From Candidatus Hadarchaeum sp. (lineage in GTDB: Archaea > Hadarchaeota > Hadarchaeia > Hadarchaeales > Hadarchaeaceae), in contig NZ_JBMFOX010000003.1 in NCBI RefSeq assembly GCF_049969415.1, forward strand, positions 8,960 to 72,959: a stretch of 64,000 nucleotides of DNA. The letters run 5' to 3'. Of the stretch, positions 17,576-47,599 are shown in pieces (positions within the stretch are counted from its first letter, which is position 1; every line of letters begins with the position of its first letter). Under the pieces are notes generated by a model. It made no database searches. It worked only from the letters and a program-made list of their open reading frames with translations, and was not told where the DNA came from. The position numbers and the translations under genes were made by a program.

Positions 17576-17687
17576 TGGCGGGCCCGGTGGGATTCGAACC
17601 CACGACCGATCGGTTAGCTCCCAATCGACCGTTAAGAGCCGATTGCTTTTGGCCGGAAACCCGACTGCCAGACTGAGCCACGGGCCC
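17576..17687 (-). tRNA. tRNA-Lys(CTT) with two introns (22/23: 17648-17664; 37/38: 17615-17632)
   Basis: Spliced: GGGCCCG TG GCTC AGTCTGGCA GAGC A ATCGG CTCTTAA CCGAT CGGTC GTGGG TTCGAAT CCCAC CGGGCCC G CCA; first intron has a clean BHB (TGGC/GCCA), second a relaxed motif. Confidence 0.92.
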
Positions 17688-36131: not shown

Positions 36132-36191
36132 GCCCAGCGGGACGGCGGCAAAGCAAACAGATTAATGCCGGTGTTGGGAAATAATTTCGGT

Positions 36192-36328
36192 AGCCCGGTG
36201 GGGTAGACCGACTGGGGTCGGGCCCAATGGTCAATCCTGCGGGCCTTTGGAGCCTGCGACGGCGGAGGGCAATAACCCGCCGAATTCGAACGTCGACGGG
36301 TCGACCGAATTTCCGCCCCGGGCTACCA
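36192..36328 (+). tRNA. tRNA-Gln(TTG) with three introns (15/16: 36207-36227; 53/54: 36266-36284; 59/60: 36291-36311)
   Basis: Spliced: AGCCCGG TG GGGTAG TGGTCAATCCT GCGGGC CTTTGGA GCCTGC GAC GGCGG TTCGAAT CCGCC CCGGGCT A CCA; BHB central helices GGGT/GCCC, CGGC/GCCG, TTCG/CGAA; A1-U72. Confidence 0.93.
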
Positions 36329-36422
36329 CGAGAAAGCGATTTTTCTTTGAGCGGTCATCTTGGCGGGGTAGAAATACTGGAACATTACTCTTTTTTGCTG
36401 CCGCGCCATCCTCTAACTCGGG

Positions 36423-38143: not shown

Positions 38144-38276
38144 AGCCCCGTGGGGTAGACCCGCCGCTGGCGGGGCCCATCGGTCAATCCTGGCGGGCAC
38201 CAGCTGGCCGCAATCTGGACCCGCTGACCCCGGTTCGAAATCGACAGCGTCGACGGGAATCCGGGCGGGGCTACCA
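38144..38276 (+). tRNA. tRNA-Gln(CTG) with three introns (15/16: 38159-38180; 32/33: 38199-38213; 59/60: 38240-38259)
   Basis: Spliced: AGCCCCG TG GGGTAG CGGTCAATCCT GGCGGG CTCTGGA CCCGCT GAC CCCGG TTCGAAT CCGGG CGGGGCT A CCA; BHB helices GGGT/GCCC, GCGG/CCGC, TTCG/CGGG. Confidence 0.93.
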
Positions 38277-47429: not shown

Positions 47430-47599
47430 TGCGGGGGGAGGGATTTGAACCCTCAACATTCGGATATCAGACCTAGGAGTCTTCAGTTTTGCCCCTTGAG
47501 AGCTGTCCCCCAAGGTCCGACACTATTGAGCCAGGTTTTACCTGGTCTCCCATTTCAATCCGGTGGCGGCTTTCCACCAGATGGTTGAGTTACCCCCGC
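47430..47599 (-). tRNA. tRNA-Phe(GAA) with four introns (D-loop: 47553-47582; 22/23: 47525-47546; 30/31: 47488-47516; 37/38: 47466-47480)
   Basis: Spliced 74 nt: GCGGGGG TA ACTC AACCTGGGA GAGT G TCGGA CTGAAGA TCCGA ATGTT GAGGG TTCAAAT CCCTC CCCCCGC A; each intron has an inner hairpin and BHB-type junctions. Confidence 0.9.

Follow-up and report, generated by a model that had tools for sequence, protein, structure and literature searches.

How a tRNA gene that is interrupted three times, twice within its T arm, could give rise to a mature tRNA is a question of which splicing endonuclease (EndA) the organism encodes and of the order in which its introns could be removed. Such a gene is located on a contig of Candidatus Hadarchaeum sp., an uncultured archaeon of hot springs, within a stretch of 64,000 nucleotides that was analysed as a whole and is hereafter referred to as the window. 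An initial annotation had read the locus as tRNA-Gln(UUG) with introns at sites 15/16, 53/54, and 59/60 and had proposed that the organism may have an unusual EndA of the (alpha-beta)2 or epsilon2 type. According to Kaneta (2018), broad specificity correlates with (alpha-beta)2 and epsilon2 enzymes, whereas relaxed motifs are poor substrates for alpha4 and alpha'2 enzymes in vitro (PMC5829648). The same paper includes a survey of Hadesarchaea archaeon YNP_N21, in which alpha4 EndA is linked with heavy tRNA gene disruption. The tension that the initial annotation had sensed, between relaxed or non-canonical introns and an alpha4 enzyme, is real and already in print for Hadesarchaea (PMC5829648).

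Anatomy and Identification of the tRNA-Gln(UUG) Gene

The tRNA-Gln(UUG) gene occupies window positions 36192-36328 on the forward strand (as do all of its parts and flanking elements described here) and reads as four exons and three introns. Exon 1 (36192-36206) covers tRNA positions 1-15, comprising the 5' strand of the acceptor stem, U8, the 5' strand of the D stem, A14, and G15, and is followed at site 15/16 by intron 1 (36207-36227; 21 nt), which has a BHB motif of the HBh' type. Exon 2 (36228-36265) covers positions 16-53 and encodes the remaining D arm, the anticodon arm (loop CUUUGGA with anticodon UUG), a variable region of 4 nt, and the 5' strand of the T stem. Intron 2 (36266-36284; 19 nt; strict hBHBh') at site 53/54 and intron 3 (36291-36311; 21 nt; BHB motif) at site 59/60 enclose exon 3, a micro-exon of six nucleotides (TTCGAA; 36285-36290) that in-silico splicing assigns to T-loop positions 54-59 and that had been placed correctly between the last two introns. 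Exon 4 (36312-36328) provides positions 60-76, namely the 3' strands of the T and acceptor stems, the discriminator A, and an encoded CCA.

The gene is located within a 290-bp spacer that is bordered on one side by a gene of the PF04252 family (SFM1-like, a protein arginine methyltransferase family) and on the other by a TrmO gene. Upstream, the conserved element AAAGCAAACAGATTAATGC (36150-36168) contains an A/T-rich, TATA-like box (36160-36167) that lies 25-32 nt ahead of the mature 5' end. Although the flanks diverge, this element is near-identical ahead of the orthologues in genomes G001, G002, G003, G007, and G004, and a similar one precedes those of G021 and G014; its position suggests that it is likely an archaeal promoter. 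Downstream, a T-rich run, TTTTTCTTT (36340-36348), is found 12 nt past the CCA; T-runs are also present shortly 3' of the gene in G001 and G002, and the run is likely a transcription stop.

In its raw form, the gene was called by neither ARAGORN nor Rfam. When applied to the window, ARAGORN reported a tRNA-His only, and Rfam at gathering score reported this tRNA-His and one interrupted tRNA (17579-17687). Rfam matches to HgcF, Scr6925, and Six3os1_3 at the locus (E ≤ 10) were at chance level, far under their gathering scores, and were rejected. Removal of the three introns in silico yielded a 76-nt product that ARAGORN called as tRNA-Gln(ttg) with a normal cloverleaf. We then applied a custom, SPLITS-like scan that proceeds from 7-bp acceptor pairs to BHB candidates, then filters on the T arm, and finally scores the cloverleaf. 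A motif search detected 18 loose BHB candidates within the 134-nt gene, and of all their subsets with up to three members, the acceptor and T-arm filters let through only one. This one subset is the three-intron model, and the three intron sites that had been annotated are therefore recovered as a unique solution.

The same scan applied to the 1.47-Mb genome assembly identified 47 loci with a cloverleaf score of 60 or higher, compared to none in the reversed genome, where the maximum score was below 60; the tRNA-Gln(UUG) gene scored 80. A second Gln(UUG) gene was not found in the assembly by ARAGORN, the Rfam tRNA model, or the BHB-splicing scan. Collectively, these results confirm that the gene at 36192-36328 is a genuine tRNA-Gln(UUG) gene with three introns.

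BHB Motifs and Their Conflict in the T Arm

All three introns had been described as having clean BHB motifs. This description was accurate with respect to the 4-bp central helix, the two 3-nt bulges, and the intron hairpin, which are present in each of the three introns, but not with respect to the outer helix, which intron 1 lacks and which is conditional in intron 3. The motif of intron 1 comprises a central helix between GGGT (tRNA positions 10-13) and GCCC, the bulges AG|A and AA|T, and the hairpin CCGAC/GTCGG. Without an outer helix (h = 0), it corresponds to the relaxed HBh' form, as it does in every orthologue that was solved. Intron 2 has a 3-bp outer helix (CGA/TCG), a central helix CGGC/GCCG, the bulges GG|A and AA|T, and the hairpin GGG/CCC, and it is the only intron with a strict hBHBh' motif in the primary transcript. 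Intron 3 has a central helix TTCG/CGAA, the bulges AA|C and TT|T, and a 5-bp hairpin (GTCGA/TCGAC). The T stem itself, of 5 bp, provides the outer helix of this motif, which it abuts only once intron 2 has been removed; this helix is absent at first because intron 2 separates the 5' strand of the T stem from T54.

The motifs of introns 2 and 3 also compete for the same nucleotides. The outer helix of intron 2 and the central helix of intron 3 both recruit positions T55-G57 of the 6-nt exon, such that the two motifs are mutually exclusive. The computed energies of the two T-arm conformers are -48.6 and -50.7 kcal/mol at 37°C and -18.5 and -19.6 kcal/mol at 70°C. Since these values are nearly equal, the order of intron removal proposed below rests on the strictness of the motifs and not on energetics. 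When intron 2 was removed in silico, the minimum-energy fold of the remaining sequence comprised the T stem followed by bulge, helix, and bulge, which is the strict motif of intron 3.

In the precursor, the fold predicted to have minimum energy did not include the intron 1 motif. That plain minimum-energy fold was itself set aside as a structure for the precursor, given that it was not significant (z = -1.54) and that its alternative pairing is not kept in relatives.

Conservation and Relative Age of the Introns

A DNA search detected the locus in 29 of 41 genomes (the present genome and 40 relatives). Four genomes of the same genus (G001, G002, G003, and G007) share identical exons with the present gene, but each of the three introns differs in its loop and by compensatory changes. 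In G004, introns are present at 15/16 and 53/54 only, and an altered D stem is accompanied by an altered intron partner (GTGT/GCAC). Members of genus g5 and family f2 have the 15/16 intron alone.

In an alignment of seven orthologues, 99.4% of the cells were paired, compared to 24-51% when the partners were slid, and five pairs had changed on both sides, compared to zero or one in the slid controls. The conformer that joins the T stem to intron 3 was 98.7% paired across six sequences, with four pairs changed on both sides. The first pair of the intron 2 hairpin is GC in four of the seven sequences and AU in the other three. These pairing and covariation figures are descriptive, as the genomes are kin and do not represent independent observations.

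To evaluate the distribution of the introns across the phylum, 66 genomes were searched with a pattern in which the exons were fixed and 12-40 bases were left free. This search identified 52 Gln 5' parts interrupted at 15/16 in 33 of the 66 genomes, and the backward control returned no matches. The pairing of exon and intron was maintained among them, with exon position 11 always followed by its partner in the intron: an exon GTGT was matched by an intron GCAC in 14 of 14 cases, and an exon GGGT was matched by GCAC in none of 38, its partners being GCCC (33), GCCT (2), ACCC (1), and variants with one mismatch (2). Uninterrupted genes in 23 of the 66 genomes have exactly the junction predicted for removal of the 15/16 intron. 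Likewise, the exon 2 stretch follows directly after ...GGGTAG, with no intron, in another organism, represented by a contig from a hot-spring run. Apart from this homologue, contigs from four sequencing runs contained unspliced relatives only, with no joined exons, a pattern that is silent on expression.

The T arm with two introns around a 6-nt exon had a much narrower distribution, being identified in 10 of the 66 genomes, all of which belong to genera g1 and g8 (no matches in the control). The wide occurrence of the 15/16 intron and the confinement of the T-arm introns indicate, as judged from these sequences, that the former is old and widespread and that the latter are younger.

In the sister genus g8 (G021 and G014), the orthologous tRNA-Gln(UUG) gene has four introns, at 15/16, 20/21, 53/54, and 59/60 (spliced solutions at L009:1440-1597 and L010:1439-1597, both on the forward strand). 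The motif of the second of these, at 20/21, straddles the junction of exons 1 and 2 and would therefore form only after intron 1 has been removed.

A Single EndA of Predicted Alpha4 Type

The genome encodes a single EndA, as a 179-aa open reading frame bounded by stops on contig C9, outside of the window (L001:1246-1785, forward strand), in which PF02778 (79.3 bits) and PF01974 (115.2 bits) match in one frame. The next gene (L001:1786-2889, forward strand; 367 aa) resembles a tryptophanyl-tRNA synthetase gene (trpS), as judged by eye from its translation, and endA ends one base ahead of the trpS-like start codon. A second EndA-like gene was not found in the 95% complete assembly by protein search (E ≤ 10) or with PF01974 (E ≤ 0.01); at this completeness, a very divergent second subunit would be a remote possibility. 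Among 61 genomes of the order, 54 had a PF01974 match, with one copy in 52 and two near-identical copies in two; all 25 high-quality genomes had a match. The closest named EndAs are those of a Hadesarchaea MAG (93%) and Ca. Hadarchaeum yellowstonense (92%), followed by those of other Hadarchaeota, and these similarities place the genome in this phylum. RtcB is also encoded (594.6 bits).

Residue numbers for the catalytic triads of the reference proteins were taken from the cited papers. In the alignments to 1a79 and 4fz2, Y115, H125, and K156 of the present EndA fall in the triad region, and they are invariant in 18 relatives. The best match of solved structure was 5x89 (7.8e-50), which is an alpha-beta fusion from M. 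kandleri according to the data statement of its paper. The alignment to 1a79, a 171-aa chain that we take to be the alpha4 EndA of M. jannaschii, had an E-value of 8.9e-37 and two one-residue gaps over 165 residues. Compared to 3p1z_B, presumably the alpha subunit of A. pernix EndA, the protein is without nine residues of the Crenarchaea-specific loop (CSL), including K44 by count. The loop between Tyr and His is equal in length to that of 1a79, two residues longer than that of 3p1z_B and of the 5x89 alpha unit, and five residues shorter than that of 4fz2, the ARMAN-2 EndA, the residue numbering of which fits the papers. A lineage-specific L3 insert was not seen in alignments with 1a79, 3p1z_B, 5x89, 4fz2, and Methanothrix EndAs.

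An (alpha-beta)2 enzyme is characterized by separate subunit genes and a CSL insert, neither of which was found in the 95% complete assembly; an epsilon2 enzyme is built from a three-unit protomer of ~390 aa, as opposed to the 179 aa of the present protein. Based on its sequence, the EndA is assigned to the one-gene alpha4 (homotetramer) type, with the tetrameric state predicted. Typing of the enzyme counts against the unusual EndA that had been proposed; by the criterion set in the initial annotation, an alpha4 EndA bears on that proposal only and leaves the gene model standing.

A Proposed Splicing Route and Its Alternatives

From the anatomy of the gene, its conservation and covariation, and the enzyme inventory, we infer a route that extends from transcription through EndA cleavage, in a given order, to ligation by RtcB. 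The sole tRNA-Gln(UUG) gene would be transcribed as a precursor of ~137 nt with three BHB introns, and the single 179-aa alpha4-type EndA would cut both 3-nt bulges of each motif. Intron 2 would be excised first, its strict motif being already present in the primary transcript. Loss of intron 2 would allow the T stem to form, which would complete the strict motif of intron 3 and permit its excision. An order of intron 2 and then intron 3 is likely given that the former is strict at once and the latter only afterwards, and in this order the 6-nt exon would be covalently held on one side throughout. Intron 1, with its relaxed HBh' motif in the D loop, would be removed independently of introns 2 and 3, and RtcB would ligate the exons. 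Because alpha4 enzymes are poor on relaxed motifs in vitro, cleavage of intron 1 by this EndA is argued from necessity. We regard this account as a whole, in which a sole Gln(UUG) gene with three BHB introns is cut by an alpha4 EndA, intron 2 before intron 3, and joined by RtcB, as very probably correct.

Two alternatives were also considered. The organism might have an (alpha-beta)2 or epsilon2 EndA that would account for its tolerance of introns, as anticipated from the correlation, published by Kaneta (2018), of broad specificity with these types (PMC5829648). The one 179-aa EndA gene, the lack of a second match (E ≤ 10 with the protein, E ≤ 0.01 with PF01974) or a CSL insert, and the presence of just one copy in 52 of the 54 matching genomes of the order bring this reading close to refuted, and we consider it highly improbable. 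It is equally improbable that the gene is in decay as a pseudogene, or that its insertions stay in the RNA, as might be supposed from its being missed by standard tRNA finders: five genomes share identical exons, whereas their introns differ in a compensated manner, the gene is the sole one found for Gln(UUG), its arrangement is kept in two genera, and a conserved box lies upstream.

A further possibility refines the proposed route and does not replace it. The alpha4 EndA of the Hadarchaeota may have gained broad specificity without a large insert, either by means of a loop with the pattern aromatic-Gly-Lys36-Pro37 or with the aid of a helper protein. This loop (aromatic-G35-K36-P37-L-S-G-G) is nearly invariant in 18 EndAs of the lineage, with K36, G35, and G32 invariant and P37 nearly so, and its position matches that of the ARMAN-2 specific loop (Tyr160-Lys161) and of Lys44-Pro45 in Crenarchaea. 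In the HMMER alignment, no gap occurs over residues 156-171 of 4fz2, such that the loops are equal in length and Y34 falls on Tyr160. Tyr160 and Lys161 are reported to be essential, and Pro or Val typically comes after the lysine of the CSL (PMC12397907). Moreover, relaxed HBh' introns at 15/16 have been retained in 33 of 66 genomes and must therefore be processed well. However, K36 is offset by one residue from Lys161 in the alignment, and Methanothrix EndAs have nearly the same loop, with an identical Gly-Lys-Pro and one residue fewer. A plain tRNA model detects 45 genes in one Methanothrix genome, which suggests little heavy disruption, compared to 33 in Ca. Hadarchaeum yellowstonense and five in a Micrarchaeota genome, where these counts are a crude proxy. 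The loop alone is therefore not enough to predict tRNA disruption, which weakens the case for Lys36 as a sufficient marker, and we consider this refinement possible but doubtful.

Other Interrupted tRNA Genes of the Genome

The tRNA-Gln(UUG) gene is not the only multi-intron tRNA gene in the window. A paralogue, tRNA-Gln(CUG) (38144-38276, forward strand; scan score 82), is located 1.8 kb downstream and has three introns, at 38159-38180 (22 nt; site 15/16), 38199-38213 (15 nt; site 32/33), and 38240-38259 (20 nt; site 59/60). A 59/60 intron like that of tRNA-Gln(CUG) was identified in 19 of the 66 genomes, all within family f1. The 59/60 intron of this paralogue and intron 3 of the UUG gene share a TCGAC...GTCGAC core, which hints at copying between the Gln paralogues.

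A tRNA-Phe(GAA) gene of 170 nt (47430-47599, reverse strand; ARAGORN on the spliced product) has four introns, which are located in the D loop (47553-47582; 30 nt), the D arm (47525-47546; 22 nt), the anticodon stem (47488-47516; 29 nt), and at 37/38 (47466-47480; 15 nt), the last with one mismatch in its central helix. The spliced product has a length of 74 nt and a score of 83. The four-intron form is kept in G001, G002, G003, and G007, and in both G015 and G010 the tRNA-Phe gene is interrupted twice, with a mature sequence that matches the predicted junctions. An alternative product of 72 nt, obtained when mismatches were allowed and the boundaries of the first intron were shifted, was rejected in favour of the strict 74-nt solution because the latter agrees with the orthologues that have fewer introns. 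The window also contains a tRNA-Lys(CUU) gene (17579-17687, reverse strand; Rfam and scan) that is interrupted in the D arm by an intron of 17 nt and in the anticodon loop by one of 18 nt; a repeat leaves the exact ends of the latter uncertain to within a few bases.

Across the genome, 15 interrupted genes with 27 introns were solved at a cloverleaf score of 79 or higher. Of these introns, eight occupy site 37/38 or a position adjacent to it, and ~19 lie elsewhere. This census, which is based on a home-made scan, is a lower bound, with nine further interrupted loci that exceed a mature tRNA in length and were only partly solved left out (C1:23232, C6:45731, C10:21631, C16:7828, C18:4353, C31:113, C2:103019, C4:32805, and C18:10090). 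Calls made by ARAGORN in intron mode were noisy at the genome scale (e.g., a ‘Gln ctg’ with a 304-nt intron) and were also left out of the counts. The Rfam tRNA model at E ≤ 1 missed at least six tRNA genes, namely both Gln genes, Phe, and those at C6:21768, C16:7828, and C18:4353. That at least six tRNA genes escape standard finders matters for completeness estimates of assembled genomes such as this one.

Relation to Known Splicing Systems

Multiple-intron tRNA genes were reportedly described by Sugahara in 2008 from Thermoproteales and other Crenarchaeota. According to two reviews, archaeal tRNA genes have up to three introns per gene, which is the stated maximum (PMC4090602; PMC8450103). 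The first of these reviews lists sites 53/54 and 59/60 along with multi-intron genes (PMC4090602), and the second notes that nearby introns can need stepwise removal (PMC8450103). The tRNA-Gln(UUG) gene is, in itself, a further multi-intron archaeal tRNA gene from a lineage in which the phenomenon is already in print. In the Thermoproteales and other Crenarchaeota, the same features, non-canonical BHB introns that include 53/54 and 59/60 and stepwise removal, accompany an (alpha-beta)2 EndA with CSL (PMC4090602; PMC8450103), whereas the present organism has a one-gene alpha4 type without CSL. Compared to the stated maximum of three introns per gene, four are present in tRNA-Phe in the window and in tRNA-Gln(UUG) in the sister genus.

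The nearest system in print is that of YNP_N21, which, as judged by EndA similarity, belongs to the same lineage as the present genome. Enzymes of this kind are said in Kaneta (2018) to harbour loop L3, whereas the present EndA has no visible lineage-specific insert (PMC5829648). In that paper, the pairing of an alpha4 enzyme with disrupted tRNA genes is mentioned in one sentence and is not explored further (PMC5829648). The M. kandleri pre-tRNA-Glu(UUC) described there also has a relaxed HBh' intron in the D loop, outside of TACK and DPANN and with an EndA without the specific loop, but M. kandleri has alpha and beta subunits and few such introns, compared to one subunit and many introns here (PMC5829648). 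The ARMAN-2 pre-tRNA-Cys(GCA) likewise has a T-loop intron, which is relaxed and is cut by an epsilon2 EndA (PMC3488258; PMC12397907). It differs in having this one relaxed intron instead of two T-arm introns that are 6 nt apart, and its enzyme is a three-unit chain of 395 aa (4fz2), compared to 179 aa here.

An entire phylum outside of TACK and DPANN keeps many relaxed or non-canonical introns with an alpha4-type EndA only, a pattern that opposes the older rule that relaxation of introns co-evolved with heterotetrameric enzymes. We tentatively suggest that a plain alpha4 EndA natively processes dozens of non-canonical or relaxed introns, among them series of as many as four in one gene that leave in a set order, although we consider this suggestion less probable than its converse. 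If true, broad specificity could arise without a heterotetramer, a three-unit enzyme, or large loop inserts, and specificity may rest on the small, conserved aromatic-Gly-Lys-Pro loop or on a helper factor. The four-intron tRNA-Phe gene and the tRNA-Gln(UUG) gene of the sister genus would then exceed the published maximum of three introns. Four-intron archaeal tRNA genes were not found in the literature searched, where the only paper returned concerned a red alga (phrase: introns in the T loop); descriptions of the anatomy of this gene, of mutually exclusive T-arm motifs, and of the age order of the introns were also not found there. The locus, in which a relaxed motif is combined with two strict ones that exclude each other around a 6-nt exon, provides a compact substrate with which to test what an alpha4 enzyme cuts and in which order.

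Two additional observations concern the tRNA complement of the assembly. Contigs C74 (2854 bases) and C136 (533 bases) carry adjacent, uninterrupted tRNA-Ile(GAT) and tRNA-Ala(TGC) genes, a layout that we take to be typical of the spacers of bacterial rRNA operons. This bacterial-like arrangement suggests that both contigs are probably contaminants of the bin. Lastly, a tRNA-Met-like gene at C1:23232-23351 (forward strand) has an intron of ~46 nt at 37/38 in which the words GATGATG and CTGA were seen by eye, reminiscent of the box C/D guide RNAs in archaeal tRNA introns.
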